Shown here: in pieces, positions 2,681-23,187 of the stretch
Layout of the letters: each line of letters opens with the position of its first letter
How positions within the stretch are numbered: position 1 is the stretch's first letter
Origin: Desulfobacterales bacterium
Lineage (GTDB): Bacteria; Desulfobacterota; Desulfobacteria; Desulfobacterales; JAUWMJ01
Direction of reading: 5' to 3'
Assembly: GCA_033791485.1 (NCBI GenBank)
Contig: JASJGP010000070.1
Coordinates: 1 to 25,130, forward strand
Length of the DNA stretch: 25,130 nucleotides
Notes under the pieces: generated by a model
The model's database searches: none
The model's input: the letters and a program-made list of their open reading frames with translations, nothing else
Told to the model about the DNA's origin: nothing
Position numbers and translations under genes: made by a program

Positions 2681-2753
2681 GTTGCTAAAATCCTTTTTTC
2701 TAAGTTGATTTTCTAAAAAATTTCATTAACTTCTTGTCAATCTATCATTTTCC

Positions 2754-2905
2754 GTAACTAAGGTGGATAGGCTGAAGACTGTTAGGAAAAAGCGCATTTT
2801 AAAGCCATGTTTAATGCAAAAATCACATTCCGTCAAAGTTCGGCAATCGTGCTTTTCTGCCCCCTTCAGCCTAAACAACTTCAGCCTGACTACGTGAGTA
2901 GTTAC
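2754..2905. mobile_element. Miniature inverted-repeat element, GTAA...TTAC family (IS66-like ends)
   Basis: Ends GTAACTA / TAGTTAC. Flanks CATTTTCC (2746-2753) and TATTTTCC (2906-2913) match at 7 of 8. Internal AGGCTGAAG (2769-2777) is inverted against CTTCAGCCT (2864-2872, 2879-2887). Confidence 0.65.
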
Positions 2906-2959
2906 TATTTTCCTTTTTACACATGTTAGGACTTATGTAAAGTTTTGAAAATCAGGCTA

Positions 2960-2989
2960 TTGCGTTTTTTTATATGATAGTGGTATAAT
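2960..2989 (+). promoter_or_regulatory. Putative sigma70 promoter for the lactonase gene
   Basis: TTGCGT-N18-TATAAT with an extended -10 TG (TGGTATAAT). Confidence 0.5.
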
Positions 2990-3054
2990 ATTAAATCTTG
3001 AATTGTTTCAACCTTTATGTCATCCTCAGTTTTTTTTAATGCAGGAGGCAAATC

Positions 3055-3801
3055 TTGAGTCTATATAAGATACACCCCATTGTAATGGGAACCAAGGTTT
3101 TTGACAAAGGGATGATGACATACCAGCATGACTATGGAAAGCCATATACCATACCCATTTACTCATGGTATCTCGAAGGCGGCGATAAGAAAATCCTTGT
3201 GGATACCGGAGAAATGAGTCCGATACAATCTGAAGATAGAGAAAAATCGATCGGAGGAAAGATTTATACATTTGAAGAAGGACTCAGTCACTGGAATTTG
3301 TCCCCGGAGGAAATCGATATCGTAATACACACGCATCTGCACAACGATCATTGTGAAAATGATTATAAATGTGTTAATGCCAAATTGTACATACATGAAA
3401 AAGAACTGGAATGTATCCACAATCCGCACCCGCTCGATTTCCGGTACCTCGAAGATTATATCGAGGATGTAGAACAAAATGATCAAATTAAAATCGTGTC
3501 CGAAGATTCGGAAATTCTGCCGGGCATTAGTGTTCTGCATACGCCTGTACATACAAAAGGGGGATTAACTGTACTTGTGGATACTTCTGGTGGGAAAGCA
3601 GCCATAACAGGTTTTTGTGTGATCAGGGAAAACTTTTTCCCACCAAAAGAGATAAAGGCAATGGAAATGGAAGTTATTCCGCCGGGAACACCGGTTAATA
3701 CATATGAAGCCTATGATATCATGCTAAAGGTTAAAGATATTGCCGATATACTGATCCCGCTTCATGAACCGGGATTTGCATCTGTTGATACTGTGGCTTA
3801 A
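3055..3801 (+). CDS. Metallo-beta-lactamase-fold hydrolase, N-acyl homoserine lactonase (AiiA/AttM)-like family
   Basis: HTHLHNDH (HxHxDH) motif, ILVDTG, HTPVHTKG and C-terminal IPLHEP. TTG start preceded by GGAGG. Confidence 0.85.
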   Translation: MSLYKIHPIVMGTKVFDKGMMTYQHDYGKPYTIPIYSWYLEGGDKKILVDTGEMSPIQSEDREKSIGGKIYTFEEGLSHWNLSPEEIDIVIHTHLHNDHCENDYKCVNAKLYIHEKELECIHNPHPLDFRYLEDYIEDVEQNDQIKIVSEDSEILPGISVLHTPVHTKGGLTVLVDTSGGKAAITGFCVIRENFFPPKEIKAMEMEVIPPGTPVNTYEAYDIMLKVKDIADILIPLHEPGFASVDTVA

Positions 3802-3804
3802 TCC

Positions 3805-3824
3805 GCACTCAGACGCCTGAGTGC
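3805..3824. other. Perfect 8-bp stem hairpin just after the lactonase stop
   Basis: GCACTCAG-ACGC-CTGAGTGC. It is followed by an A-run rather than a T-run, so a terminator role is uncertain. Confidence 0.4.
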
Positions 3825-3901
3825 CGAAGAGAAAAAAAAGGTGTTTTAGGCCGCAAGACTCATTAATATGTCTTTTATGCAAATCTATAAATGCAAAAAT
3901 T

Positions 3902-4033
3902 GAAGCACTCATAGAAAGTCCCAATTTGACCTTATCTGTCATTCCTGCGAAAGTAGGAATCCAGTGATTTTAAATAGCTATGGGCTCCCGCTTGTACGGG
4001 AGTGATGCGATTTTTATTTTTTACAAGACTATC
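3902..4033. mobile_element. Decayed miniature element (TCGTAAAAAG-end family) carrying two REP/dRS3-like hairpins
   Basis: Left end GAAGCACTCATAGAAAGTC; right end TTTTTTACAAGACTATC. Inside are ATTCCT-GCGAAAGT-AGGAAT (3941-3960) and CTCCCG-CTTGTA-CGGGAG (3985-4002). AAAATT flanks both sides. Confidence 0.6.
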
Positions 4034-4081
4034 AAAATTGAGATATAAATTTTTTAATTTAAACCCTGAAGGAGAACAAAA

Positions 4082-4648
4082 ATGAAAACAAATACCATTT
4101 TTCTGAAAATTTCTATCATTCTCCTTGTTTCCATGCTCGTTTTGGGAGTAAACAACACCCTGTCTGCAAACCAGAAAAAAGTTGATAAAGCACCGGATGA
4201 AAACAAGATCGCCGCAGAAAAGGCCCCTGTTGCTATAAAAAAAGATGCTGTAGAAGAAGGAAAACTGGAAAAGGACCAAAGAGAACAAAAAAATGATTCC
4301 GCATACTGGTATGACATGGCAATACTCTGTTCGGTTTACGGAAACGACAAGAATGCGATTAAGTATTTCGATAAAGTCATTAAGCTGGAACCTGAAAATA
4401 GCAGAGCTTATTTTCATCGTGGTGTGTCATACGGTGAGATTGGTCAGTACGAAAAAAGCCTGTCTTCCATAAATAAGGCCATTGACCTTGATCCGGAGAA
4501 AGGTCTTTTTTATTATGGCAGAGGAAGGGTTTGCCTGTTGTCAGGTGATAAAGAAAAGGCGATAGAAGATTTTAAACAGGCAGCGACTATGGGAAACCTT
4601 GATGCGCAAAATTACCTGAAGAACGTTGCCATGGTTGAGTGGGAATAA
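4082..4648 (+). CDS. Secreted or membrane-anchored tetratricopeptide repeat protein
   Basis: Hydrophobic N-terminus, charged linker, then about 3 TPR motifs (AIKYFDKVIKLEPENSRAYFHRG, SINKAIDLDPEKGLFYYGRG). GAAGGAG RBS. Confidence 0.88.
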   Translation: MKTNTIFLKISIILLVSMLVLGVNNTLSANQKKVDKAPDENKIAAEKAPVAIKKDAVEEGKLEKDQREQKNDSAYWYDMAILCSVYGNDKNAIKYFDKVIKLEPENSRAYFHRGVSYGEIGQYEKSLSSINKAIDLDPEKGLFYYGRGRVCLLSGDKEKAIEDFKQAATMGNLDAQNYLKNVAMVEWE

Positions 4649-4660
4649 TACTGGTTTAGT

Positions 4661-7174
4661 ATGAGTCTGAAGCTTAAAAAAATTTTATTTTCCAACTGGC
4701 TGATTTGCACTATTCTTACCCTGCTTGTTATAGGGGGGATGCTGCTTGAATTTCATCCCATGCAGTTTCTGGAATACAAGGCCTATGATTTTCTTACCGG
4801 CCTTCGAAAACGGGAAACCAGCAGCCAGATTGTACTCGTAAAAATTGACAATAAAAGCATAAAAGATATCGGCTCCTGGCCATGGCCCCGCTCTTATATT
4901 GCCGATGTGATCAGTCGTCTTTCAAAGTTTAGTCCTAAAGCATTTGGCCTGCATCTTTTATATCCAAGCCAGGAAATAAATCCAGGACTTAAGGAAATTA
5001 TTGATGTCAGAGAAAGGCTTAAAAATGATCCATCCCTGAAAAAAAAGAAAAGCCGACTTAAAATTGACCGGATTCTGGCTGAAGCTGAAAAACGACTTGA
5101 GCATGATAATAAATTTACTGCAGCTGTAAATCACGCTGTCAACATAGTTTTGCCTCTGCGATTTAACATGGGCCCTATAAATAACGATGATGGCTCCAAA
5201 TTACCAGGCATTTTAATCATTAATTCCCTCGATTTCAGCAAGAACAAGGTAAGCCCGGCAAAACACCCCTATACTTTTGATGATAAGACTATTGTCGCTA
5301 ATGAAGTTACAACGACTTTCAATCAATTGGCAAGAAAGGCGGGTGCACTGGGACATATCAATCAGACTATCGACTCTGATGTCGAAGTCAGAAGATCACC
5401 ACTTTTTATCAAATATAAAGAAAGATATTTCCCTTCCATTGGCCTTCAACTCGCTGCAAAATATGCAGGGGTGGATATTAACGAAATAAAACCGAATGAC
5501 GACGGACTGAGACTTGAAAACATTGAAATCCCTACTGACGGATATTACCGGATGTTTATCGATTATGGCGGACAGGGACAAAAAATTGCCAGTTACTCAT
5601 TTTCAGATGTTTTCAACGGCAAAGTCCCTGAAAAGGCCTTTCGTGATAAAATCGTTCTCCTTGGAGTCACCTCTGGAGATATAGTTCCTCTGTTTAAAAC
5701 AACAGTAAATAGCGACGCTTCCAGAGTCGAAATTTGCGCAACTGTTGTTGAGAATATTATTAACAGAAAACATTTCTCCAGGCCCGCCTGGGGCTTTGCA
5801 ATGGAAACTATGGTCGTTCTTTATTTCGGTCTGTTTCTTATATTTGTTATTCCCAAGGTGAATCCAAGGGATGGCGGGTTAATACTGAGTATTTTTTTAT
5901 TTACCTGGATTGGATTTGCCGTTGTTCTTTTTATGGTATTCGGTTACTGGCTTAAAGTACTTTCCCCTATCTTTGTGGCTTTCATCGGTTTTTTTCTAAC
6001 AGGATATAAAAGATTTGCCGAGGAAAAACAGCATGAAAGTATGGAATTAAACAAAATGCTGGGGCTGTCATTTCAGAAAAAAGGTGTACTCGATTTTGCC
6101 TTTGAAAAATTTATCTTATGTCCTGTTGAAAACAAAGCAGTAAGGAGCCTGCTTTATGATCTCGGCCTCGATTTTGAACGAAAAAGGATGTTTAAAAAAG
6201 CACTTGATGTTTATAAACATATGCTTAAAGCAGGCAAATTCAAAGATATTACTAAACGAATAAAAACTCTTGAAGGTTTTGGCGAGACAGCCATATTTGC
6301 CCCCGGTTCAACCATGCAGCAAGAAACTCTGTTGCTTAATGGCGCTACGACTAAACCTACCCTGGGGCGCTATGAGATCATTAAGGAACTTGGTCAAGGT
6401 GCAATGGGTACGGTCTATCTTGGCATGGATCCTAAAATCAACAGGGAAGTGGCTATTAAAACCTTAAAATACACAGATGTGGATGCCGACAAACTGGCTG
6501 AAGTTAAAACGCGATTTTTTCGTGAGGCAGAGGCTGCAGGAAAGCTTTCTCATACAAAAATAGTTACCATTTTTGATGTTGGGGAAGAATATGATATGGC
6601 CTACATGGCCATGGAGTTTCTCAAAGGAAAGGATCTGTCCCAATATTGCAGTAAAAATAAATTACTCCGGCCTAAGCAAGTACTAAAAATTGTTTTGTCA
6701 GTGGCCGAAGCCCTGGATTATGCTCACCGCAATGGAGTTGTTCATAGAGATATAAAACCTGACAACATTATCCTTTTGCAAAACCACAGGGTAAAGGTGG
6801 CTGATTTTGGCATTGCCCGTGTTATGACTGCTTCAAAAACCCAGACAGGGGTTATTCTTGGTACTCCCAATTACATGTCACCTGAACAGGTTGCAGGAGC
6901 AAATGTGGATGGCCGCAGTGATCTTTTTTCTCTCGGCGTAGTTCTTTATGAGTTGTTGACCGGGGAAAAACCTTTTAAAGGTGATAACCTTACAAATCTT
7001 ATGTATGCCATTTCAAATGTTTCCTACAAGCCATTGTTGGAAATTAAACCGAATCTTCCATCCTGCCTGGAACCAATTCTCAAAAAGTCGCTGACAAAAA
7101 CTGTAAAGAAGCGATTTAAATCTGCTGCTGAAATGGGCAAACAAATCCGACTGTGTTTCAATATGATTAAATAA
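4661..7174 (+). CDS. CHASE2-domain transmembrane Hanks-type Ser/Thr protein kinase
   Basis: N-terminal TM helix, CHASE2 hallmarks (IVLVKIDNKSI..IGSWPWPRS; DKIVLLG) and 3 TM helices. The kinase domain is intact: LGQGAMG, VAIK, HRDIKPDN, DFG, GTPNYMSPE. Confidence 0.93.
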   Translation: MSLKLKKILFSNWLICTILTLLVIGGMLLEFHPMQFLEYKAYDFLTGLRKRETSSQIVLVKIDNKSIKDIGSWPWPRSYIADVISRLSKFSPKAFGLHLLYPSQEINPGLKEIIDVRERLKNDPSLKKKKSRLKIDRILAEAEKRLEHDNKFTAAVNHAVNIVLPLRFNMGPINNDDGSKLPGILIINSLDFSKNKVSPAKHPYTFDDKTIVANEVTTTFNQLARKAGALGHINQTIDSDVEVRRSPLFIKYKERYFPSIGLQLAAKYAGVDINEIKPNDDGLRLENIEIPTDGYYRMFIDYGGQGQKIASYSFSDVFNGKVPEKAFRDKIVLLGVTSGDIVPLFKTTVNSDASRVEICATVVENIINRKHFSRPAWGFAMETMVVLYFGLFLIFVIPKVNPRDGGLILSIFLFTWIGFAVVLFMVFGYWLKVLSPIFVAFIGFFLTGYKRFAEEKQHESMELNKMLGLSFQKKGVLDFAFEKFILCPVENKAVRSLLYDLGLDFERKRMFKKALDVYKHMLKAGKFKDITKRIKTLEGFGETAIFAPGSTMQQETLLLNGATTKPTLGRYEIIKELGQGAMGTVYLGMDPKINREVAIKTLKYTDVDADKLAEVKTRFFREAEAAGKLSHTKIVTIFDVGEEYDMAYMAMEFLKGKDLSQYCSKNKLLRPKQVLKIVLSVAEALDYAHRNGVVHRDIKPDNIILLQNHRVKVADFGIARVMTASKTQTGVILGTPNYMSPEQVAGANVDGRSDLFSLGVVLYELLTGEKPFKGDNLTNLMYAISNVSYKPLLEIKPNLPSCLEPILKKSLTKTVKKRFKSAAEMGKQIRLCFNMIK

Positions 7175-7229
7175 GCAATAAAAAGTGATTCTTTGAATGC
7201 TTTGCGGCGATGAAAATAAATCATTAATT

Positions 7230-7295
7230 GTAGCCGTTTTCGGCTTGAAATTTGAAATTGGAAAGTAGAAATTTCAACGTTCCGTGAACGCTTAC
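7230..7295. mobile_element. 66-bp miniature element, GTAA...TTAC family, with perfect 8-bp target site duplication
   Basis: Ends GTAGCCGTTTTCGG / CCGTGAACGCTTAC (10 of 14 complementary). CATTAATT at 7222-7229 and 7296-7303. Interior is 7-bp tandem units. Confidence 0.75.
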
Positions 7296-7313
7296 CATTA
7301 ATTAAAGTCTGCC

Positions 7314-8963: not shown

Positions 8964-9013
8964 CGAGGCTAAAACACAGCTTTTTATTCTAAGCTGAATA
9001 AAGAGAGGAAACC

Positions 9014-10120: not shown

Positions 10121-10124
10121 CCTT

Positions 10125-10251
10125 GATGGTGTCGTAAAAAGTCTCATCTACTGCGTTGTAGCGATTTTTCAGGAACTCAACATACTATGTGTATAGTCTC
10201 GTTCCTCAAAAATTGCTACGCCTTGTATATGAGCCTTTTTACGACACCATC
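10125..10251. mobile_element. 127-bp palindromic miniature element (TCGTAAAAAG-end family) between convergent genes
   Basis: Perfect 17-bp TIR GATGGTGTCGTAAAAAG / CTTTTTACGACACCATC, extending to 25 of 27. Inner arms GTAGCGATTTTTCAGGAAC / GTTCCTCAAAAATTGCTAC. Confidence 0.8.
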
Positions 10252-10295
10252 CGGCGCTTATTCAAAAGAAATTCAAAGAAACTGCCAAAACTAAA

Positions 10296-11210
10296 TTAAT
10301 ACGAAAAATATTTTCCCTGCCACGAATCTCTCTTTTCCAATGTTTCTTTTATAAGGGAAAGAGTTTGAGCTTTTTTGATTGACCACTGCGGTGCGACGAG
10401 TTCTTCAGGGTGGGGGTCGCCGGTAAGACGCTGAATTACCATGTCCCCTGGAACTCGTTCCAGGAAGTCGCACACAAGATCTACATACTGCTGTTGTTCG
10501 AGACATTTGTATGAACCTTGCCGGTACAGCTTTTCAAGTCTTGTGCCTTTAATTACATATAAAAGATGAATTTTTATCCCGTCAATTCCCATTTTTGCAA
10601 TAGCCTTTGCCGTTTCAAGCATATGACTTCTTTTTTCATCAGGCAGCCCGAGTATGACATGAGCGCATATCTTTATCCCCCTGTTTAAAGTTGCATCAAC
10701 CGCATCCGTAAAGCATTGGAAGTCATGTCCCCGGTTAATCAAAGTGAGCGATTTGTCATGTATGGACTGGAGGCCGTATTCGATCCATATCAGGTGTGTT
10801 TTTGCATAACTTTCGATTAGTTTTAAAACAGATTCATTCACGCAATCCGGCCTCGTTCCGATGGAAAGGCCTACCACGTCGTCTATTGCCAAGGCTTCTT
10901 CATAAAGGTTTTTAAGCGTATCTAATGGTGCGTAAGTATTTGTAAATGACTGAAAATATGCAATATATTTTTTAGCCTTGTATCGCTTTAAAAGCGCCTT
11001 TTTCCCTGCAATGATCTGGTCTGTAACAGTGTGCCCTTTGGCGTGGGCTCCGGTTCCTGATCCACGCGTGTTGCAGTAGATACAGCCGCCCGTCGAAATC
11101 TTGCCATCCCTGTTTGGACAGGAAAGACCTGCATCTATGGTGATTTTCTGGACCCTGCATCCGAAAATACTTCTAAAATAGGAATTTAAATCGTTGTATC
11201 TTTTATTCAT
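10296..11210 (-). CDS. TIGR01212-family radical SAM protein (YhcC/YtqA/MnmL-like)
   Basis: Atypically spaced cysteine motif CPNRDGKISTGGCIYC, plus YFQSFTNTY, IGTRPDC, EYGLQS, GIKIHLLYV and IQRLTGD. Confidence 0.9.
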   Translation of the reverse strand: MNKRYNDLNSYFRSIFGCRVQKITIDAGLSCPNRDGKISTGGCIYCNTRGSGTGAHAKGHTVTDQIIAGKKALLKRYKAKKYIAYFQSFTNTYAPLDTLKNLYEEALAIDDVVGLSIGTRPDCVNESVLKLIESYAKTHLIWIEYGLQSIHDKSLTLINRGHDFQCFTDAVDATLNRGIKICAHVILGLPDEKRSHMLETAKAIAKMGIDGIKIHLLYVIKGTRLEKLYRQGSYKCLEQQQYVDLVCDFLERVPGDMVIQRLTGDPHPEELVAPQWSIKKAQTLSLIKETLEKRDSWQGKYFSY

Positions 11211-11320
11211 ATCAGTTATCCAAAGCTTATAAAAATACTTTTTACGAATTCATCAATACTTGACCTGCTGACGAGCCGATTATATAATTTCTAACCACAA
11301 AGACAAAAAGAACACAAGAG

Positions 11321-11406
11321 TTAACGACTCAGGTTCACAGTTCAAGGTTAAAGAAGAGTGAAGGGCACAAAGCAACCAAGCTTGAACCCTGAATCTGAGT
11401 AGTTAC
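11321..11406. repeat. Decayed GTAA-family inverted-repeat element in the radical SAM/mnmG divergent spacer
   Basis: TAACGACTCAGGTTCACAGTTCAAGGTT matches the reverse complement of the right arm, TAACTACTCAGATTCAGGGTTCAAGCTT, at 23 of 28. Right end CTGAGTAGTTAC. No TSD. Confidence 0.6.
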
Positions 11407-11433
11407 GATTTAAGGACTATAGAAAAACCATAA

Positions 11434-14369: not shown

Positions 14370-14385
14370 CAGACTATGAATTTTT

Positions 14386-14541
14386 GTAAGTATTCACAGG
14401 CACCGCATCTGCGTGTGATAAGGGCAACCAGCATAGAAAACTATAGCTGATCGCCCTTATCACGCACATCTGCAGCACCTGTGAACGCTTACATGACGTA
14501 AATTGAGCAACCTTTTTCCCCGAATGAGCGTGAACAGGTAC
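14386..14541. mobile_element. Composite of two GTAA-family miniature elements
   Basis: Unit 1 (14386-14492) is GTAAGTATTCACAGG...CCTGTGAACGCTTAC with inner arms GTGTGATAAGGGC / GCCCTTATCACGC. Unit 2 (14498-14541) ends GTGAACAGGTAC. Outer flanks GAATTTTT / GGATTTTT match at 7 of 8. Confidence 0.65.
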
Positions 14542-14742
14542 GGATTTTTTAACACAACCTTTTTAGAATAAGGTTTTTTCAGAAAAAGAATAACGTACCA
14601 GGCTGCGGGGTACGGGATATAAAAAAGGATTATTTCCGATTAGCAACTCATAACTCGTATTATAATCTTTCAACTTAAAATAACATCCTGTCTAAAATCG
14701 GCAATATATTGTCAATATGCCTTGACTAAGCGCCTAAATATA

Positions 14743-14772: not shown

Positions 14773-14820
14773 CATAATTTAAAATATTTGGCTATCTTGA
14801 GATAGGATTTTTTTATCACT

Positions 14821-15339: not shown

Positions 15340-15354
15340 TCAGCGGGGTTTGCC

Positions 15355-18105
15355 ATGATTTTAACATGTAATGAATGCGGTATCGGTTTCAATTTTGATG
15401 AAAACCTTTTAAAAGAAACAGGTTCTAAAGTCAGGTGTTCAAAATGCAAAAATGTTTTTACAGCCTATCCCCCCTCTTCCGCAAGCCAGTCTGAAAAGAC
15501 TGACTTCGCCATGGAAGATGAGCAATCGGATGCGCCGGGTACTGAATCATCTCCTGAAACATCTAATGATGACGGAATAGAGCTTAAAAACATTGACCTA
15601 TCAGAAATTGAAGGCATACTTGACATGGATAATGAGCCGGATTCCGGAAGTGATTCACCTAAAGGGCCTGGTGAACTTGACTTCGATTTCACTACAAAAA
15701 AAGATGAAGGTGAGGCAGCCCTGGAATCAACTCTTGAGTCGGAAAAAACCGAAGAGCTCGACCTTTCTGAAATGGATAATATTCTTAAAGAAGACGAAAG
15801 CCCTGAAGAGACACTATCACTGGATCTGTCGGATATGGAAAATATCCTTGAATCAGAAGATGAAGCTGCAAAGGAAAGTGAATCATCTCAGGAGGAAGAT
15901 CCCGGCTTCGAACTCGGTCTAGATTTAGATACCGGTGAAGACGAAGGTAAGGCAACCCTGGAGTCAACTCTTGAGTCGGAAAAGACTGAAGAGCTGGATC
16001 TTTTTGAGATGGATAATATTCTTAAAGAAGACAAAGAGCCGGAAACTAAAAGTGTATCAACCGATGAAACCATTGGGCTTGATCTTGATTTTGATACCGG
16101 TGAAATTGAAGATGAGGCAGCCCTGGAATCAGCCCTTGGGTTGGAAAAGACTGAAGAGCTGGATCTTTCTGAGATGGATAATATTCTTAAAGAAGGCGAA
16201 GATCTGGAAACTAAAAGCTTGCCAACCGATGAGAGCACTGGGCTTGATCTTGATTTTGATATTGATGAGAGCCTTGACGAAGACGGATCCGATTTCGAAC
16301 CGGACGAAACCGTTGCTCTGGACCTCTCGGATATGGACAATATCCTTGAAGTAAAAGATGAACCATCAGAAGAAACTGAATCATCTGAGGAAGAAGACTT
16401 TGACTTTGAACTGGATTTTGGTTCTGATAAAGAAGAAGTTGTAAGCGCTTCCGAACCTGTAGCTGAGTCGGAAAAGAAAGAAGATCTGGATATTTCCGAT
16501 TTTGAAAATATTCTTGAAGAAGACAAAGAACCGGAAACTAAAAGTGTGTCAACTGATGAAACCCTTGATTTTGATATTGATGAGAGTTCTGACGAAGACA
16601 GGTCCGATTTCGAACTGGAAGAAACCGTTGAGCTGGATCTATCGGATATGGACAATGTTCTTGAAATTGAAGATGAGGAATCCAAAAATACTGAATCGGC
16701 TGCAGATGAAGATCTCGACTTCGAACTGGACCTTGACTTTGAAGATGAAAAGGGGCAGGACGATAAAGCACTGGAAAGCAATGCTGTAGAGGCTGAAATG
16801 CCGGATGACCTTGATTTTGAACTGAATCTGGACATGGATGAGGATGAAGGCGCTGATAGCGCCGAATCAGAGCTTAAACCTGAATTAGAATTGGAAGACA
16901 TTGAAGGACTCGATTTGTCTGATATGGAAGATGGGATCAGTGAAATAGATAAGCAGGCTACTGAAGATACTTATGATGAAAAAACAGATGAAATTGATCT
17001 TGAATTAGACATGGTTGAGGAAGAAGGTGAAGACACTGATAACGATTCATTAGCAATTGAATTAGGAGATGCGGAGGAATTCGATTTATCTGATCTGGAT
17101 AGTGTTCTTGATCAAGAAGATAAACAGGCCGGAAGAGATGTTCCCACTGAAGAAATAGAAGAGCTTGAGTTAGATTTAGATATTGAGGACGATATTGCTG
17201 ACGCCTCTGATGATAAAGCATCAGAAATACAGTTTAAGTCAACAGAAAAATTCGATCTGTCTGATATTAATAATATGATCGATACTGATGAAAAACCAAA
17301 AATGCAGGATGCAGAACCAGAGGAAGTTGAGCTGGATTTTGAAATTGAAGGAAATGCGCAGGATCTTCTGGTAAAAGATGAAACTATTGAAAAACAGACA
17401 GTTTCACACAAAAAAGAAAAACTTGATGATACTTTTGATATGGGAGCAATAGAAAACGGATCCGATGCTGAAGATGTCGATGGTTTTACTGATTCAAAAA
17501 AAGCAAAAACCTATCCGCCCAAGAGAAAACCCGCAGGCAAGAAGCAGCTTAGCGGGCTTATGCGTATATTACTGATTTTTGTTTTCCTGTTTGGAGGCGC
17601 TTACGCTGCGCATGAGGTTTTAAACAGCATGGGGATAAAGATTTCTGTTACCGACGCTTTCAGAGATATACCTTTTGTTGGTGATCTGCTTAAACCTGAT
17701 GTCAAAGATGTCGGTAACATTTATGTGAATATTTTTGAAAAGACAGTAAACGGCAAATTCATGGATAATCCGAAAATAGGAACTCTTTTCGTAGTAACAG
17801 GGAAAATTCAAAACGAATATAAGCATTCCCGACGTTTTATAAAAATGACAGGCAAAATCTATAAAAAGGGGAAAGCCCTTGTAAAAGCAGAAACGGTTTA
17901 TTGTGGAAATCTATTATCAGAAGCAGAGCTCAAAAGCCTTAGTCAAACAGCTATTACTAAGCGACTGAAAAACCGCCTCGGAGATAAGAGAATAAACATG
18001 AATGTTAAAAAAGGCCAGGCGCTCCCGTTTATGATCGTATTTTCAAATGTTCCGAGCGGCCTGGAAGAATATTCCGTTCAGGTAGCAGGGTCTGATAAGC
18101 CATAG
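15355..18105 (+). CDS. Zinc-ribbon (MJ0042-type) + long acidic repeat region + TM helix + DUF3426-like C-terminal domain protein
   Basis: N-terminal CNEC...KVRCSKC, about 650 aa of D/E-rich repeats, basic patch plus TM (ILLIFVFLFGGAYAA) and a C-terminal beta-rich domain (LFVVTGKIQN...LPFMIVF). Confidence 0.85.
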   Translation: MILTCNECGIGFNFDENLLKETGSKVRCSKCKNVFTAYPPSSASQSEKTDFAMEDEQSDAPGTESSPETSNDDGIELKNIDLSEIEGILDMDNEPDSGSDSPKGPGELDFDFTTKKDEGEAALESTLESEKTEELDLSEMDNILKEDESPEETLSLDLSDMENILESEDEAAKESESSQEEDPGFELGLDLDTGEDEGKATLESTLESEKTEELDLFEMDNILKEDKEPETKSVSTDETIGLDLDFDTGEIEDEAALESALGLEKTEELDLSEMDNILKEGEDLETKSLPTDESTGLDLDFDIDESLDEDGSDFEPDETVALDLSDMDNILEVKDEPSEETESSEEEDFDFELDFGSDKEEVVSASEPVAESEKKEDLDISDFENILEEDKEPETKSVSTDETLDFDIDESSDEDRSDFELEETVELDLSDMDNVLEIEDEESKNTESAADEDLDFELDLDFEDEKGQDDKALESNAVEAEMPDDLDFELNLDMDEDEGADSAESELKPELELEDIEGLDLSDMEDGISEIDKQATEDTYDEKTDEIDLELDMVEEEGEDTDNDSLAIELGDAEEFDLSDLDSVLDQEDKQAGRDVPTEEIEELELDLDIEDDIADASDDKASEIQFKSTEKFDLSDINNMIDTDEKPKMQDAEPEEVELDFEIEGNAQDLLVKDETIEKQTVSHKKEKLDDTFDMGAIENGSDAEDVDGFTDSKKAKTYPPKRKPAGKKQLSGLMRILLIFVFLFGGAYAAHEVLNSMGIKISVTDAFRDIPFVGDLLKPDVKDVGNIYVNIFEKTVNGKFMDNPKIGTLFVVTGKIQNEYKHSRRFIKMTGKIYKKGKALVKAETVYCGNLLSEAELKSLSQTAITKRLKNRLGDKRINMNVKKGQALPFMIVFSNVPSGLEEYSVQVAGSDKP
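15703..16670 (+). repeat. In-frame intragenic tandem and higher-order DNA repeats
   Basis: A near-identical ~90-bp block occurs at 15703, 15940 and ~16110 (offsets 237 and 165 bp, both multiples of 3). The block at ~16252-16350 recurs at ~16560-16660. Confidence 0.85.
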
Positions 18106-18122
18106 AAAAGGTGGTTTTCCAC

Positions 18123-18151
18123 TTGACTAAGTAGAAAGAGGCTGTTAAAAA
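18123..18151 (+). promoter_or_regulatory. Putative sigma70 promoter for tRNA-Met
   Basis: TTGACT-N17-TAAAAA with TG extension, about 33 bp upstream of the tRNA. Confidence 0.4.
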
Positions 18152-18184
18152 AAGCGCTGTTAAAATTTGGATATAAGTAGTAAT

Positions 18185-18261
18185 GGCGATGTAGCTCAGG
18201 TGGTTAGAGCATGCGGCTCATATCCGCAGTGTCCGGGGTTCGAGTCCCTGCATCGCCACCA
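18185..18261 (+). tRNA. tRNA-Met (CAT), probably elongator
   Basis: 77 nt. Acceptor stem GGCGATG/CATCGCC + ACCA, anticodon arm TGCGG-CTCATAT-CCGCA, T-loop GTTCGAG. The G1-C72 pair and lack of three G-C anticodon pairs argue against fMet. G4/A5 argue against Ile2. Confidence 0.95.
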
Positions 18262-18292
18262 AAATGCAATCCCAAGCGTTCCGATTAAATAC

Positions 18293-18327
18293 AAAACCCT
18301 ATGATAATATTAGAATTATGGGGTTTT
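18293..18327 (+). terminator. Imperfect inverted repeat downstream of the tRNA (terminator or att-adjacent repeat)
   Basis: AAAACCCTATGAT...ATTATGGGGTTTT (11 of 13 complementary), followed by Ts. Confidence 0.4.
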
Positions 18328-19049
18328 TCTTTTCCAATCCAAGGTTTTCAAGTTGATTGATATTTTGATTTTCTGACCGATTATTCCAGAAATCATCAAG
18401 ATGAAACACAGACTGCATCATCTGATTGTTCTCCGCTATACATACAAATATTTTTGTCGTTTTAAGCCACAAGTCACATCATCGTGACAGATAATATGTC
18501 ATTAAAGCTTAACTCGCGACAAATAAAAGGTTATTTTGTCGCAAAAATTAATATCGCGACAAAAACATGCCGAAATATATTTCAGACAGAGACTTATTCC
18601 CCATTGAAACCATAATTGCCCAACGACATGTCTGATATCACAACTTTTTAGCAGTCTCCCAAAGTTTGTATATGTTGGTGCTATACGTAACAAAAGCTGA
18701 TTTTATAACTGATATGTCAATTTTATGAGAACGCTTGTAAGTTCATAAAACATGATTATAATGAATATATGAAAAAAAATCTGTCTTAAATACCTATCAG
18801 TTTCAATATATTATTTGCAAACAGGACTTTCTGTGCCATGAGCATAGCCCTCCCATTCTATAACTTGTCATCCATCTGTATAATCACTGCGCGGGAATAA
18901 ATATAAAATTACCGTGCCTAAGCTGAGTACTTACCGCCTTGTCATCCTGGTTTGTGTGCTCGATTATTCCTGTTTATTTCTGGCACGCATATTCTTTTCA
19001 AATTATAATCATCAAAAACGAACAACCTCTTTCAAGAAAGGTGAAAACT

Positions 19050-19613
19050 ATGAAAACTTTGCAGGTAAAAGAATTAATGATACCTATTTCGGAATACGCA
19101 TCCGTTCACGAAGATGCCAACATAACGGAGGCTATGCAAGCAATTGAAAGTAAAAATAAAAGTTACGGAGAAAGCCCCTATCGACATCATTCTCTTGTAG
19201 TCATTAATGACAATAATCATGTGGTGGGGCGCCTCAGTCAGGTGGACATAATGCGGGCTATGGAGCCCCGATATGACAAACTGGAAGATGCGCACTGGGT
19301 TAGCCGATCGGAGTTGAGTAAGGATATGCTGGTAACCCTGCGTGAGAGCTTTATGCTCTGGGAGGAACCATGGGAGGTAATGTGCAAAGGCTTGGGCAAC
19401 ATGAAAGTAAAAGATTATATGCAAGAACCAACTGAAGGTGAGCTCGTCTCGGAAAATGATACATGTAATATTGCCTGTCATAGAATTGTGATGGGACGCC
19501 ATCATAGCCTGCTAGTTACTCGAGACAAAGAAATAATTGGTATCCTACGTTCAACGGATCTTTTCAATAACCTCTATGATTTAATGGTTAAAGGTAACTG
19601 CCTTGAACCCTAA
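19050..19613 (+). CDS. CBS-domain (Bateman module) protein
   Basis: VKELMIP, LVVINDNNHVVGRLSQVDI, VKDYMQ and LLVTRDKEIIGILRSTDL. Start moved to ATG 19050 (AGAAAGGTG RBS) from the track's 18939. Confidence 0.85.
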   Translation: MKTLQVKELMIPISEYASVHEDANITEAMQAIESKNKSYGESPYRHHSLVVINDNNHVVGRLSQVDIMRAMEPRYDKLEDAHWVSRSELSKDMLVTLRESFMLWEEPWEVMCKGLGNMKVKDYMQEPTEGELVSENDTCNIACHRIVMGRHHSLLVTRDKEIIGILRSTDLFNNLYDLMVKGNCLEP

Positions 19614-19860
19614 TGCATTTATTGAAAAACTTTTTTGGCACGTTACTTTTAGTTTTAGAGGACAATGCCTGTCGCCTATAAGAATGATGCCACAAAAAAC
19701 GACCCTATTTATTTCCATAATTACTAATCATGGTTTGGCCCATAGTTTTCCTACATCAGAATGGCCTGTGTTGTTAGCACGTCAAGTTGTCCGGTATTTT
19801 TGACAAATGAAATGTCCGGTTGGTTAAATTTATATATGGTTACAACCAGAACTGATATTG

Positions 19861-19892
19861 GCTGGTTCAGGGGGATATCCCCTTGAACCAGC
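19861..19892. terminator. Near-perfect 32-bp palindrome downstream of the transposase remnant
   Basis: GCTGGTTCAGGGGGATATCCCCTTGAACCAGC has a single G-T mismatch. Confidence 0.55.
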
Positions 19893-19906
19893 GGCAATTC
19901 ATTCGG

Positions 19907-20323
19907 TCAAGCTGCTTTTTTTCTTAACTGTTCCAATATACTGCCACTTGAATCAAACCTCCCTAACAAATGCGGCCCTTTCCAAACTGAATAGCTGTCG
20001 TCCAGGTGATGACGAACCAACACATGCAAACCTGAACAGGTGTGTCGTAATGGTTGACGCTGTATCTGCAAGATCTTGTTGTCGTAACGTACGGTGTTGT
20101 CTTTGTTTACCACACGCTTTGGGGAGGGCCGCTGCCTTCTTCGGTCAAACAGACCATCATAACCGTATTTTTCATATCGTATTTTCCAACGCCTCATGCT
20201 GCGGTCACTGACTCCTATTATCCATGCCGCTTTAATCCAATTGATTTCTCCACTCATTGCTCTTAAAATAATCTCTTGTATTTTCATTGCCCGCCTTGCT
20301 GCGGAATCGGAATACATACTCAT
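19907..20323 (-). pseudogene. Transposase deletion derivative: N-terminal HTH fused in frame to the C-terminal domain, DDE core missing
   Basis: MKIQEIILRAM...AAWIIGVSDRSMRRWKIRYEKYGYDGLFDRRR..PSPKRV is joined directly to VNKDNTVRY...GPHLLGRFD...KKAA. AGGAGG lies 7 nt before ATG 20323. Confidence 0.8.
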
Positions 20324-20447
20324 AGGCAAACCTCCTATATCTTCTTGCCTCTTTGTATCCCATATCCACTAACCGGACAATTCATTTGCTTACAACACGT
20401 CGCTATAAATTATACGGTGTTATTAGGTGGCCGAAATGGAGCGGAAT

Positions 20448-20891
20448 ATGCTTCTGGTAATGTTCAAGAAAATATTATATCCAACCGATTTTTCAGATGT
20501 TTCAAAGAAGGCCATAGACTATATTAAGCAACTAAGAGAAAGCGGATCCGAGACGGTCATCGTGTTGCATGTCATTAATCAACGGGGTATGCAAGCTATT
20601 GAGCAGTATGCATCTGGAACTTTGATTGAAATAAATCAAAGGATAATGGATGATGCAAAACAGCAAATAGAGGTCATAGAAGATGAATTGAAGAAAAGTG
20701 GTTTTGAAGTAAAATCAATGATTAAAACGGGAATTCCAATGAGAGAAATATTAAAGGCCGAAGAAGAAAATGTCTCAGTTATCGTAATAGGATCTCACGG
20801 AAAAAGCTACTTAGAGGAGATTTTTCTCGGTTTTGTTTCCGAAAAAGTTTCCAGGAAATGCAAAAGCCCGGTTCTAATTGTTAAAAGATAG
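20448..20891 (+). CDS. Universal stress protein (UspA family)
   Basis: FKKILYPTDFS, VIVLHVI and VIVIGSHGKS..EEIFLGFVSEKV...PVLIVK. The start could be 20427, 20448 or 20460. Confidence 0.9.
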   Translation: MLLVMFKKILYPTDFSDVSKKAIDYIKQLRESGSETVIVLHVINQRGMQAIEQYASGTLIEINQRIMDDAKQQIEVIEDELKKSGFEVKSMIKTGIPMREILKAEEENVSVIVIGSHGKSYLEEIFLGFVSEKVSRKCKSPVLIVKR

Positions 20892-20914
20892 GGCGGGTTT
20901 CCGGACGCCCTTTT
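20891..20914 (+). terminator. Possible intrinsic terminator after the USP gene
   Basis: GGGCG...CGCCC followed by TTTT; the stem is short. Confidence 0.35.
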
Positions 20915-20957
20915 GAATTAAACACTACATTTTTTTTGGACATAATATAAAACCCAT

Positions 20958-21083
20958 ATGCCAAGACAAGCAAGCATAGATGCTCCTGGAGCATTACATC
21001 ACATCATTGTAAGAGGGATAGAGCGGTGTAAAATATTTAAGAACGATACAAGACAGGGAATTTTTTTTAAAACCGTTTTGTAA
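20958..21083 (+). pseudogene. N-terminal fragment of a REP-associated/IS200-like Y1 (HUH) transposase (RAYT)
   Basis: Manual translation MPRQASIDAPGALHHIIVRGIERCKIFKNDTRQGIFFKTVL* matches the typical RAYT N-terminus (MPR..R...PG..HH...RG.ER..IF). It degenerates at an 8-T run. Confidence 0.75.
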
Positions 21084-21209
21084 AGATCAGGTTCAGCTTG
21101 ACCTTTTTTCATAGATACGATTAAGCTGATAATAAACAAAACTGAAAAAGGTTTACTTGTACCTTGCGGCCTTTAGGTCGTAGCGTTAACCCCACCAAGG
21201 AGGGAAAAA

Positions 21210-21569
21210 ATGAATGTAATTCGTTTTAGTGAAGCCGAGAATTATGAACCTGAAAAGGATTGGAAAAGAGTCAGCCTTTGTAACCAGGAGGACATCTCAG
21301 TTGAACATTTTGTCAAGCCGCCAAAGCACAGCTCTCCTTTGCACGATCACCCCAATGCGCAGGTCCTTATTGTTCTAAAAGGGAAACTGTCAGTTATTAC
21401 AGACAACGATGGAGAACAAGAGCTTTGTGAAGGTGATGCGGCGTATATTCCGGGTGAGGAACCGCATGTTGTTACCAATCCATTAGACAAATTATCCATA
21501 GGTTTGGATATTTTTGTTCCGGGACGATCCTTTGATTTTTGGCTAAAACGAAAAACTGTTAAAGGCTAA
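21210..21569 (+). CDS. Cupin domain protein
   Basis: PLHDHPNAQVLIVLKG and GDAAYIPGEEPHVV cupin motifs. AGGAGG RBS. Confidence 0.88.
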   Translation: MNVIRFSEAENYEPEKDWKRVSLCNQEDISVEHFVKPPKHSSPLHDHPNAQVLIVLKGKLSVITDNDGEQELCEGDAAYIPGEEPHVVTNPLDKLSIGLDIFVPGRSFDFWLKRKTVKG

Positions 21570-21618
21570 CCAATATGGAGCTTCAGCTCCTTAAACAATT
21601 TAAAGAGGAATCACCTTT

Positions 21619-22872
21619 TTGCCGAATCTGACTGAAACAGAAAAAACCTATAGAATACACTGGGCCTGGGTGATTCTGGCCGTCTGTTTTTGCAACCTGT
21701 TCATCAATTATTCGATTCGGCTCGGTTATGGAGTTGTCCTGCCGGAGATGATTCGCGATCTCGAATTCAGCCGAACAGCGGGTGGCTCCATTTACAATGC
21801 CTATCTTTTTGTCTATCTTGCCTTGACGCCTTTCACGGGGTTTCTCACTGACAAGCTGGGAGCCCGTCGGGTGATTGCCGTATGTTCACTGATTCTGGGA
21901 ACAGGCGTGCTGCTTATGGGTACCGTCCGGAGCCTGCCTGACGCCTGCATTTTCTACGCTGTCGTGGGGCTTGGCGCTACCGGAATGTGGACACCCGTTA
22001 TTACCGTTGTTCAGCGCTGGTTCAGCCCTAAAAAGAGGGGACTCGCCCTTGGAATCATTTCTACAGGATACGGATTAGGATTTGGAACCATGGGCGCCGC
22101 ATTCCCCTGGATTGTCCAGCAGTTTAACTGGCGCTTTGCCTGGTATTTCCTGGGAGCAGCCGCCCTGGTTATGTTCTTTTTCAACAGTTTGTTGCTAAAA
22201 AGTGATCCTGCGTCCGCCGGCTATGAACCCTGGGGACAGAAAACAAGAATTGATTCAGTAAAAATCGCCCAATCAGAAAAACCCTCATTCGTAAAAAAGG
22301 TATTAAAATACAAACCGTTTTGGATTATCGGCTTGTCATATTTTTGCATCGCTTATAGCCTTTACGGTATAACAACTTTCATGGTGGATTTTGCACAATA
22401 TGAAATGGGGCTGCCCCTTGCTAAAGCAAGTTTTCTGGCGACAATTCATGGTGCTTGTCAAATTATAGGAGTATTGACAATTCTGCCTCTTTCAGATTAT
22501 CTGGGACGAAAAAAAACCATTATCATTTCTAACTTAGCTATAACCATTACATTGACCGGCATTCTGTTTGCCGGACAATCATGGATTATCCTATATATTC
22601 TTGTCGGTATTTTAGCGGTTTTCTACGGTGTGACATTTCCGATTTATGGAGCATGTGCCGGCGACTATTTCCCAAGAGCCCTCATGGGAACCGTCATCGG
22701 TGCCTGGACACCTTTTTACGGGACCGGAGCGATACTGGCTCACTGGGTATGCGGTATGCTGCGAGATACCACAGGAAGCTACAGCATTGCATTCAGCATC
22801 AATGCGATTATGGCTGCCCTCGGATTCTGCTTTTTTTTAATGTTAAATAAGAGTAAGAATATCCCCGTTTAA
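21619..22872 (+). CDS. MFS transporter
   Basis: About 12 hydrophobic segments, motif A variants GFLTDKLGARR and PLSDYLGRKK, and WFSPKKRGLALGI. TTG start after GAGGA. Confidence 0.9.
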   Translation: MPNLTETEKTYRIHWAWVILAVCFCNLFINYSIRLGYGVVLPEMIRDLEFSRTAGGSIYNAYLFVYLALTPFTGFLTDKLGARRVIAVCSLILGTGVLLMGTVRSLPDACIFYAVVGLGATGMWTPVITVVQRWFSPKKRGLALGIISTGYGLGFGTMGAAFPWIVQQFNWRFAWYFLGAAALVMFFFNSLLLKSDPASAGYEPWGQKTRIDSVKIAQSEKPSFVKKVLKYKPFWIIGLSYFCIAYSLYGITTFMVDFAQYEMGLPLAKASFLATIHGACQIIGVLTILPLSDYLGRKKTIIISNLAITITLTGILFAGQSWIILYILVGILAVFYGVTFPIYGACAGDYFPRALMGTVIGAWTPFYGTGAILAHWVCGMLRDTTGSYSIAFSINAIMAALGFCFFLMLNKSKNIPV

Positions 22873-22913
22873 ACACTACACACTTCGGCTTTAATTGAAG
22901 TCATTAATGCTGA

Positions 22914-22967
22914 GAGACCATTGCAAAACGGCACTTTTCGAAGTCTGCGCTTATCTGCAAAAGTCTC
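22914..22967. mobile_element. 54-bp miniature element with GAGAC..TTGCA ends
   Basis: Left end GAGACCATTGCAAAA; reverse complement of the right end GAGACTTTTGCAGAT. Confidence 0.45.
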
Positions 22968-22974
22968 AAGGGAT

Positions 22975-23137
22975 GATGAACTCGTAAAAAGTCCGATTTA
23001 GACGGTTTCGTAAAAAGTTCAAATCCAAGGCGTGCAAATTTTATAATTATGATGCGTACTTATCGTACGCAGAATGATTACGAAATACAGCACAACGTCC
23101 CGCTGAACTGAAGCGGGAGACTTTTTACGAGACCGTC
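22975..23137. mobile_element. Miniature element (TCGTAAAAAG-end family) with duplicated left end and 7-bp flanking direct repeat
   Basis: Left ends GATGAACTCGTAAAAAGTC (22975) and GACGGTTTCGTAAAAAGTT (23001); right end GACTTTTTACGAGACCGTC. AAGGGAT on both sides. Inner hairpins GCGTAC-TTATC-GTACGC and CCCGCT-N7-AGCGGG. Confidence 0.75.
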
Positions 23138-23187
23138 AAGGGATCAGTTCGCCGACACTATGGAGAGCTGAACCCTTTCAGGACAAA

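Follow-up and report, generated by a model that had tools for sequence, protein, structure and literature searches.

The window, as we call the whole 25,130-nucleotide stretch analysed here, belongs to a fragmented MAG from marine sediment, of which it forms one contig; the organism is a relative of sulfate reducers, of Desulfobacterales type within Thermodesulfobacteriota. Its intergenic gaps hold miniature inverted-repeat transposable elements (MITEs), short and without genes, that we assign to families A, B and C and list here by position in the window.

2754-2905: family A1a MITE, 152 bp, with ends GTAACTAAGG... and ...GAGTAGTTAC and an interior of GCTGAAG-type 7-bp units
3902-4033: decayed family B MITE of 132 bp with two hairpins, ATTCC-N10-GGAAT and CTCCCG/CGGGAG
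7230-7295: family A2b MITE, 66 bp, with GAAATTN 7-bp units in its interior
10125-10251: family B type I MITE, a 127-bp near-palindrome with perfect 17-bp ends
11237-11254, minus strand: solo family B end, a motif match that is part of a ~34-bp insertion
11320-11406: family A1b MITE, 87 bp, with GGTTCAN 7-bp units and no duplication left
14386-14541: family A2 composite, 156 bp, made up of a 107-bp palindrome (14386-14492) and a 49-bp outer module (14493-14541)
22914-22967: family C MITE, 54 bp, with ends GAGACC...GGTCTC, directly abutting the B composite
22975-23137: family B composite of 163 bp in which an outer half-end (22975-23000) precedes a 137-bp B element (23001-23137)

A preliminary description of this DNA had counted at least eight short inverted-repeat elements, and all eight are present at, or a few bases from, where it had placed them. 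Most of its coordinates hold; the element put at 11321 begins at 11320, and position 14498 lies inside the 49-bp outer module of the A2 composite rather than marking a second element. The end motif occurs a third time at the terminus of that module. Three family A elements had also been credited with 8-bp flanking duplications, and inspection of the flanks gave one perfect duplication and two that match at 7/8 positions. The perfect one, CATTAATT, lies at 7222-7229 and 7296-7303 around the A2b element, 18 bp beyond which NAD synthase starts; the other two are CATTTTCC/TATTTTCC at 2746-2753 and 2906-2913 around the A1a element and GAATTTTT/GGATTTTT at 14378-14385 and 14542-14549 around the A2 composite. 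Among the B elements, the decayed copy is flanked by a 6-bp duplication, AAAATT, at 3896-3901 and 4034-4039, and the composite by a 7-bp duplication, AAGGGAT, at 22968-22974 and 23138-23144. The latter also carries a CCCGCT-N7-AGCGGG hairpin cassette at 23099-23117, inside its 137-bp B element. Beyond the type I element, positions 10252-10268 are a linker remnant; in other copies the linker continues to a further outer end. Across the genome there are ~39 copies related to the A1a element, ~21 to A2b and ~104 to B type I, and the decayed B element matches B clusters 9 and 10. Predicted RNA folds are strong for B type I (-61 to -63 kcal/mol on either strand, z ~ -12.6) and the B composite (-61.9 kcal/mol, z -9.4); the A1b element has z = -4.6.

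Have these elements moved? A comparison with close relatives, as the preliminary description had proposed, revealed precise empty and filled sites in the congeners G001-G003, for A elements as well as B elements. The A1a site is empty in all three, each of which retains one CATTTT(T/C)C copy, the A2 composite is absent in G001, and the insertion with the solo B end, 27 bp upstream of a radical SAM gene start, is missing at the orthologous site of all three. The intergenic gap that holds the decayed B element is only 45 bp in G002, and a metagenome contig at the host organism's depth lacks 10121-10311, the B type I element. Conversely, at AAGTT^GATTTTC a B element is present in G001 and G003 and missing from the window and G002. 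The A1b element is older than the other window elements and has an orthologous copy in G002. Families A and B have both been mobile. Moreover, elements consisting solely of two ends carry perfect duplications, two of them A1 (33 bp at C603:3991-4023 and 48 bp at C211:6308-6355) and one B (45 bp at C579:8207-8251), so that the ends suffice for movement, which bears out the earlier proposal that short ends are the key to it.

Family A has two end types, A1 (GTAACTACTCAGG) and A2 (GTAAGCGTTCAC), both beginning 5'-GTAA. IS66-family terminal inverted repeats begin GTAA, often GTAAGCG. The excess of end motifs over chance that had been predicted is evident here, in that the A1 end GTAACTACTCA occurs in 40 exact genome copies against 3 for the control and the A2 end GTAAGCGTTCAC in 54 against 0. 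Duplication length is equally consistent across the genome: A1 pairs show exact duplications at 8 bp only (11 of 29 pairs), and the A2 composites and 62-bp forms together show 8-bp duplications that are exact in 10 cases and within one mismatch in 20. It is the 155-161-bp A2 composites that carry them, and not the 107-bp palindrome alone. Moreover, relatives have IS66-family insertion sequences of 1.58-1.69 kb with exactly the A1 end, GTAACTACTCAGGC. Six of these, 1,580 bp long and with 8-bp duplications, are in genome G039 (PF03050 match at E = 1.9e-48), and another of 1,689 bp is in G025; among the autonomous elements, flanks were readable in G039 and for the related element of G005, and these copies have 8-bp duplications. 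The A2 end is matched only approximately, by a 2.4-kb IS66 element in G040 with the end GTAAGCGTTCA...

On this sequence evidence, in which the ends, the 8-bp duplication and the autonomous elements of relatives agree, family A consists of IS66-family MITEs, as had been suggested from the GTAA ends. The expectation that intact IS66 elements with the same ends would be found was realised for A1 in relatives, whereas a PF03050 search returned no match in G001-G003 and none in the MAG, where it is weak evidence since the assembly is 89% complete and fragmented at repeats. The family A elements would be deletion-type derivatives of IS66-family insertion sequences, and we infer that an IS66-family DDE transposase recognising A1 and A2 ends would have moved them in trans and left the 8-bp duplications. 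They share GTAA ends and an 8-bp target duplication with IS66 elements, but the A2 mobile unit has three end copies, and the interiors are heptamer arrays and palindromes in which no remnant of a parent is recognisable. The single-ORF architecture of the IS66-type parents presumably places them in the ISBst12-like subgroup.

Family B is a separate and larger MITE superfamily. Its members end in GAYGRNNTCGTAAAAAGT (sequence logo TTGAYGRNNTCGTAAAAAGTC), inverted repeats of 18 bp, and have a 6-bp target duplication at AANNTT; the ~300 loci make up 1% of the assembly. The motif has 6 matches in the window against 0.02 expected and 94 exact matches in the genome against 0 for a reversed control; allowing up to 2 mismatches gives 544 ends. 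Inverted pairs number 117, nearly all of 38-258 bp and without internal ORFs. At 6 bp, 21 of 115 pairs (~18%) have an exact duplication against 2.0 in a permuted control, and with one mismatch allowed the share is 33%. Except for a few pairs at 7 bp, other lengths show no excess, and the duplication is also seen at target sites that depart from the AANNTT consensus. That many pairs lack an exact duplication fits age and nesting and leaves room for other processes. Family B therefore combines the features of a MITE, namely conserved ends, a short non-coding body, a fixed-length duplication and presence/absence differences, and its end motif is spread across Thermodesulfobacteriota. Some transposase would move it, leaving 6-bp and sometimes 7-bp duplications at AANNTT. 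No autonomous B element was present among the long-range end pairs in the MAG, and in a search of sampled genomes and transposase families the B transposase was not found at the ISNCY_1, ISNCY_2 and DDE_Tnp_1 loci of B-rich relatives or at 80 loci sampled from the species collection. An unclassified DDE gene beside a B-like end on contig C46 was examined together with its homologues, and the B transposase was not found there.

Only one of 116 B elements lies inside an ORF of at least 150 aa, and such ORFs make up 77% of the genome. The position of the MITEs at gene junctions would arise because selection removes intragenic insertions and because AT-rich intergenic DNA would offer the AANNTT target.

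A further question is how such different interiors came to lie behind so few ends. The preliminary description had noted that interiors are mostly unrelated behind common ends, and at least 15 unrelated interior groups do lie behind the one B end. MITE superfamilies normally show this pattern. Of 30 CACAGAG arrays, 23 adjoin B ends, and of 33 GAAATTA arrays, 19 adjoin A2 ends; among the arrays scored no type was found inside two different end types. The same combinations of end and interior recur in a distant high-GC relative from another family of the order. Because every interior type is linked to a single end type and persists in distant relatives, these types are old sublineages. Smaller pieces behave differently from one copy to the next. 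Hairpin cassettes of 17-27 nt are found almost only inside MITEs and occupy alternative positions in aligned copies; of the 38 H1 hairpins, 35 are no farther than 130 bp from a B or C end, whereas ~3% of random positions are that close, and the remaining 3 are in degenerate B copies when judged by eye. One insertion shared by G003 and G001 contains a 25-nt H1 cassette in G003 and lacks it in G001.

We consider it probable, at roughly 80%, that the window has been colonised by several superfamilies of non-autonomous MITEs, A derived from IS66 and B separate, whose interiors represent long-lived sublineages. With only the ends needed for movement, the sequence between them would be free to change, and each end type would have split into many long-lived sublineages whose interiors combine tandem 7-9-bp units, long palindromes, additional subterminal end copies and nested cassettes, the 17-27-nt hairpin cassettes being gained or lost after insertion. 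What weighs against this view is that the palindromic members are predicted to form very stable hairpins (z -9 to -13) and that the B end is kept phylum-wide, both compatible with selection beyond transposition.

An alternative hypothesis is that the B shell is primarily a target, in that the spread of a minimal palindromic B element would come before the entry of other small elements into its centre, which would yield the varied interiors. The 45-bp B element provides such a minimal form, cassettes H1 and H2 occupy one internal site, CATATAC^AAGGCG, a cassette differs between orthologous copies, and extra inner ends and linkers suggest nesting. However, duplications flank the outer ends of whole composites, which indicates movement after assembly. 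The major interior types, present in 14-94 copies and well conserved in the example copies, point to amplification of finished combinations, and most interior types have no separate existence beyond B ends. We regard this hypothesis as unlikely.

The interpretation offered in the preliminary description was that short ends time and again capture other repeat families, such as heptamer arrays, hairpins and palindromes, and carry them to gene junctions, perhaps as a mobilisable regulatory or RNA-structure toolkit. Some observations speak for capture: ends-only elements imply that whatever lies between a pair of ends could be mobilised, some heptamer-array palindromes lack A and B ends (24 of 26 GAACATC and 17 of 19 AGCTCAT arrays), B clusters 5 and 6 look like an array between two complete mini-B units, and in G021 B elements are located within GAACRTY arrays. 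The mini-B-flanked arrays and the G021 nesting make a composite-transposon-like capture mechanically plausible. However, the pairing of every interior type with one end type and its conservation in the distant relative speak against repeated capture, and the supposed cargo does not behave as free repeat families, as neither the hairpin cassettes nor the dRS3-like hairpins were found free in the genome. As for a toolkit, the palindromic members are predicted to fold strongly. However, the same gene junction is occupied by different families in different species, a pattern that fits opportunistic colonisation better than functional delivery. Repeated capture for delivery is distinctly unlikely, and any regulatory or RNA-structure toolkit would be putative. 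The intergenic MITEs are real but largely ordinary selfish DNA that would have no host function.

Y1-mediated single-strand transposition leaves no target duplication. The fixed duplication lengths of 6 and 8 bp, the proven DDE (IS66) parent of A1, the occurrence of unrelated hairpins or inverted repeats rather than A or B ends around the four Y1_Tnp genes checked in the MAG, and a B end that forms no conserved hairpin and has a variable triplet without compensating change make a third reading very improbable, in which a domesticated single-copy Y1 transposase of RAYT type would have spread REP/REPIN-like elements, or the host would have selected structural repeats, in place of MITEs from DDE-type insertion sequences. 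In its favour, three of those Y1 genes are long and RAYT-like, no autonomous B element turned up in the search described above, the B end is conserved phylum-wide and many copies are hairpin-forming palindromes. REP, BIME and REPIN elements with RAYT transposases are short, abundant intergenic palindromes of mosaic, modular build (PMC3116915), which our elements resemble in these respects, but the ends here are transposon-type inverted repeats, not GTAG-type hairpin units.

Colonisation by MITE superfamilies has close parallels. Unrelated interiors behind common ends characterise the eukaryotic Stowaway and Tourist superfamilies as well as the bacterial Correia/NEMIS and cyanobacterial Nezha elements. 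Family B is like them in its short inverted ends, fixed duplication, preferred target, non-coding body, hundreds of copies, subfamilies with unrelated interiors and presence/absence between relatives. It differs in that its end and 6-bp AANNTT duplication match no insertion-sequence family among those identified or tested, its distribution covers a whole phylum and its autonomous partner was not found in the search described above. The cassettes recall the small dispersed repeats (SDRs) of Nostoc-type cyanobacteria, reportedly described by Elhai et al. as 21-27-nt dispersed units nested in MITEs or heptamer repeats and showing signs of recent mobility. Cassettes H1, H2 and H6 and a 17-nt family C unit span 17-27 nt and likewise lie inside MITEs and beside heptamer arrays, at alternative positions and with differences between orthologous copies. 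However, the phylum is another one, the sequences are unrelated, and cassette mobility here amounts to one orthologous difference and positional variation. SDRs have been found only in Nostocaceae (PMC5861425).

The hairpin at 3939-3958, which had been called dRS3-like, does share the ATTCC/GGAAT arms of Neisseria dRS3, but its N10 spacing and arm length differ from the core quoted earlier, ATTCCC-N8-GGGAAT. The dRS3 core serves as a phage integration target in Neisseria. In our genome the ATTCC-N10-GGAAT hairpin has ~12 copies, nearly all inside B elements.

The family C MITE at 22914-22967 and the solo B end at 11237-11254 were missing from the earlier list of elements. Family C has 290 ends genome-wide and leaves 5-bp duplications, exact in 15 of 48 pairs and at 5 bp only, and the copy in the window has 36 related matches.

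The window carries members of four groups of miniature inverted-repeat transposable elements (MITEs), defined by their ends and referred to here as families A1, A2, B and C. Together these amount to ~600 small elements and ~1.8% of the metagenome-assembled genome (MAG; 3.32 Mb, 634 contigs, 41.6% GC, completeness 89%; the window is all of contig C70), to which A1 contributes 0.24%, A2 0.30%, C 0.27% and B-related sequence 1.0% (~33 kb in ~300 segments). The elements that a preliminary description had listed from the sequence alone are all present in the window, and position 14498, which was read there as a second element, falls within the 49-bp outer module of the A2 composite.

Elements of families A, B and C in the window
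2754-2905, A1a MITE, flanking duplication CATTTTCC / TATTTTCC
3902-4033, decayed B element, flanking duplication AAAATT / AAAATT
7230-7295, A2b MITE, flanking duplication CATTAATT, perfect
10125-10251, B element of type I, outer end lost and duplication therefore unreadable
11237-11254, solo B end, absent from the preliminary list
11320-11406, A1b MITE, no remaining duplication
14386-14541, A2 composite, flanking duplication GAATTTTT / GGATTTTT
22914-22967, family C MITE with ends GAGACCTTTGCAAA...GGTCTC, absent from the preliminary list
22975-23137, B composite, 7-bp duplication AAGGGAT

The end motifs occur far above chance. For B, six occurrences in the window compare with an expected 0.02, and 94 exact genomic matches compare with none for a reversed control (544 at ≤2 mismatches); exact copies of the A1 and A2 ends number 40 and 54 against 3 and 0 in the control. 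The genes that neighbor the elements are ordinary, encoding a metallo-beta-lactamase-fold protein, a TPR protein, a CHASE2 kinase, NAD synthase, a DUF362 ferredoxin-type protein, a radical SAM protein, MnmG, a DnaJ-type protein, a phosphoribosyltransferase, an MFS transporter and glutamine synthetase. DNA near-identical to the window is found in many metagenomes from marine sediment and seawater.

The preliminary description had treated the elements as mobile, and comparison of syntenic loci in three congeneric genomes (G001, G002 and G003; genes 76–91% identical) bears this out. The A1a element at 2754 is missing from all three congeners, each of which retains one copy of the duplicated octamer. 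The site AAGTT^GATTTTC holds a B element in G001 and G003 and is empty in the window and G002. The gap at 3802-4081 is only 45 bp long in G002, and each of the other three genomes has a different element there; the junction at 10121-10295 is occupied by B in the window, by A1a in G002 and by a heptamer-array element in G001. A contig from one seawater metagenome, at the organism's depth, replaces 10121-10311 with 25 other bases. The variety of elements at orthologous junctions indicates that gene junctions have been colonized repeatedly and independently.

Family A had been attributed to IS66, and this attribution is correct, since the 8-bp duplications are accompanied by IS66-family elements with the same ends in relatives. 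Exact flanking repeats are seen in 11 of 29 A1 pairs, at 8 bp only. The common form of A2, a 107-bp palindrome, lacks a duplication when it stands alone; the A2 composites of 155–161 bp, in which this palindrome is extended by a ~50-bp module that closes with a third end copy, are duplicated, as is the 62-bp form (together 10 exact 8-bp duplications, 20 within one mismatch). A profile search with PF03050 across 40 relatives recovered IS66-family elements bounded by ends identical to GTAACTACTCAGGC, with six 1,580-bp copies in G039 and one of 1,689 bp in G025, and perfect 8-bp duplications (e.g. AAATAAAA, GAAGTATC) surround them where the flanks are readable. A 2.4-kb IS66 element in G040 starts GTAAGCGTTCA. 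No IS66 transposase was found in the MAG, at 89% completeness, or in the three congeners. The concrete IS66 parent settles the nature of family A.

Family B is a MITE superfamily separate from family A. Its conserved end has the logo TTGAYGRNNTCGTAAAAAGTC, the corresponding inverted-pair motif is GAYGRNNTCGTAAAAAGT, and a repeat in another genome starts with TGATGGCGTCGT, the B end. Family B duplicates a 6-bp target, AANNTT, and the two copies are exact in 21 of 115 pairs versus 2.0 in permuted controls, with no excess at other lengths save a few at 7 bp. Off-consensus targets (ATACTT, TACTTT, AAATAA) are also duplicated, and therefore the flank is not part of the inverted repeat. Readings of the end as a hairpin or as a promoter were rejected, the former as its variable triplet has no compensating change and the latter as its hexamer-like parts are unsuitably spaced. 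The 117 adjacent inverted pairs fall on a ladder of lengths (~125–127, 131, 151, 176 and 202 bp) that reflects partly extra outer ends of 24–34 bp and partly hairpin cassettes of 17–27 nt. Of 116 B elements, just one is inside an open reading frame (ORF) of ≥150 aa, a class that takes up 77% of the genome. Twice the expected share of B ends (22% vs 11%) fall ≤300 bp from a contig end, which suggests that the repeats are partly responsible for the fragmentation into 634 contigs. Of 41 genomes sampled from the order, 27 have the motif, the richest with 835 exact copies, and it is also found in many further Thermodesulfobacteriota. The genomes that share it bear names such as Desulfobacteraceae, Desulfobulbia, Syntrophaceae and Desulfatiglans, and the source of the window is accordingly placed as a Desulfobacterales-type member of this phylum. 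A full-text literature search for the core motif returned nothing relevant.

No autonomous B element was found in a limited sample of fragmented assemblies, and 80 loci taken from a species-wide scan yielded no candidate. B end pairs 0.6–5 kb apart in the MAG all enclose housekeeping genes, as do candidate pairs in the relatives G014 and G019, and 20 DDE_Tnp_1 loci in five B-rich genomes lack B ends. Insertion sequences of the ISDol1 group make 6–7-bp duplications, and for this reason both NCBIfam ISNCY models were tested. Neither type has B ends: the ends of ISNCY_2 (TGT...ACTGTCCGGTT) match a deletion derivative at 19769-20397 in the window and not B, and those of ISNCY_1 are TAAGGGTGAGC... 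Contig breaks beside B ends in the relative G021, considered as a possible insertion-sequence boundary, turned out to fall at a short B variant, by reconstruction ~86 bp long and perfectly palindromic. Lastly, a 592-aa DDE transposase with an N-terminal HTH (C46:107-1882, minus strand; locus L213) lies 98 nt from a B-like end. It scores below all NCBIfam cut-offs (best IS1380, 52 bits vs a cut-off of 180), has homologues of 34–73% identity in G005, G003, G021 and G039, and by its sequence looks like a member of an unclassified insertion-sequence family; it was rejected as the B enzyme because the homologues in these four genomes are without B ends. Very abundant across Thermodesulfobacteriota, with end, target and duplication defined and the transposase missing, family B poses a concrete search problem for transposon research.

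Unrelated interiors do lie behind shared ends, as the preliminary description had proposed, with at least 15 interior groups behind one B end and a similar picture in family A. Elements that consist of ends only carry perfect duplications (A1 of 33 and 48 bp, B of 45 bp), and the ends are therefore sufficient for movement. Composite-transposon-like capture is mechanically possible, given that certain B elements resemble an array between two complete mini-B units and that B elements in G021 are flanked by or sit within GAACRTY heptamer arrays containing AANNTT targets (contig starts L039-L048; L051, L052), but no direct case was found. The further proposal that the ends repeatedly captured independent repeat families is unsupported, as interior types are tied to end type: CACAGAGNN arrays adjoin a B end in 23 of 30 cases and GAAATTA arrays an A2 end in 19 of 33, while 24 of 26 GAACATC arrays and 17 of 19 AGCTCAT arrays have neither an A nor a B end. 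The dRS3-like hairpins number only ~12 copies, nearly all within B elements. Moreover, in G019, a high-GC genome that belongs to a different family within the order, like interiors fitted to the local composition lie between B ends (ACCACAAAG-type units and a GTCATGCC...GGCATCCAG hairpin), and from this match the combinations of end and interior are taken to be old lineages. Separately, further palindromic elements with arms of tandem 7-8-bp units (GAACRTC, CACGAAAA, AGCTNAT, AAGGCAG, GAACCCTT) and without A, B or C ends occur genome-wide (e.g. C50:669, C2:8674, C141:3502), some with a central CCCGC...GCGGG hairpin.

Nested in the MITE interiors are GC-rich cassettes of 17–27 nt, namely CCCGCT-N7-AGCGGG (H1, 38 copies), CCGCAGGAARTGCCCTTGGGG (H2, 27 copies), TCCGCC-N3-5-GGCGGA and the 17-nt unit GATAAGCGCAGACTTCG. 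H1 and H2 are almost confined to B or C elements, and ~3% of random positions lie equally near a B or C end. The site CATATAC^AAGGCG can hold either H1 or H2, and H2 also occurs at GATGG^CTAAG. Comparison of G003 and G001 at an orthologous B insertion shows a 25-nt H1 cassette in the G003 copy only. Family C, with 290 ends genome-wide, a 5-bp duplication and size classes of 35, 52–54, 142 and 159–184 bp, behaves alike in that its longer copies hold the 17-nt unit GATAAGCGCAGACTTCG at any of four symmetric positions and H1- or H6-type hairpins are variably present. We tentatively propose, at a probability of roughly one in four for the two parts jointly, that the cassettes are self-mobile and insert specifically into MITE interiors, and that the phylum-wide B end is served by an undescribed or domesticated transposase coded outside B ends. 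By analogy, the cassettes would resemble the small dispersed repeats (SDRs) reportedly described in Nostoc by Elhai et al. in 2008. That work on Nostoc is cited in passages of PMC3116915 and PMC5861425. If the proposal is true, self-mobile cassettes would be a non-cyanobacterial SDR counterpart among the smallest mobile DNA known, and the phenomenon of very small mobile elements would reach beyond cyanobacteria. The elements otherwise belong to a known kind, MITEs, and their wider interest lies only in the behavior of the cassettes and in the orphan family B.

The preliminary description also envisaged a regulatory or RNA-structure toolkit. Predicted RNA folds reach -61 to -63 kcal/mol for B type I (z ~-12.6) and -56 kcal/mol for the A2 palindrome (z -10), and palindromic members transcribed from either strand would fold very stably. 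Folding of A1a, A2b, the decayed B and the C element is indistinguishable from that of shuffled sequence. About 6% of the sampled sequence words are contained in two metatranscriptomes only, solely as contigs. A terminator or RNA-stability role would be possible; genome comparison favors opportunistic insertion, because species differ in the family present at the same junction. In annotation there is a risk of taking such elements for regulatory RNAs, terminators or small genes.

An Rfam scan of the window matched only a tRNA-Met (CAT) gene at 18185-18261, and metagenome contigs part from the window on either side of this gene, where loose ends fall at 18181-18185 and 18261-18262, which suggests that its flanks are variable. 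Contigs of two metagenomes from different studies, at the organism's depth, skip the 162 bp at 20513-20674. The population thus differs by a deletion or insertion that lies either shortly upstream of the universal stress protein gene region or inside it. A 916-aa ORF at 15355-18105 has many in-frame direct repeats (165–186 nt and 36 nt) with acidic LDLS/LDFD motifs, and two short segments (14609-14659 and 24627-24672) each have 3–5 related copies elsewhere in the genome. The deletion derivative of an ISNCY_2-type (NF033594) insertion sequence at 19769-20397 has arms at 19804-19824 and 20368-20388 with the ...TGTCCGGTT motif that also marks the ends of complete 1.3-kb copies in G021, as well as a leftover HTH-only ORF of 140 aa (19907-20329, minus strand). 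At this locus, metagenome contigs are joined in alternative ways (19953>20327, 20066>20459). Four Y1_Tnp genes are present in the MAG (C384:1515-1883 and on C258, C59 and C328), of which one belongs to an IS200-like element between ACCCCRTCCGCTTGCGGYGGGGT hairpins and three are longer and RAYT-like, one of these being bounded by GGGGTCGGGCC inverted repeats.
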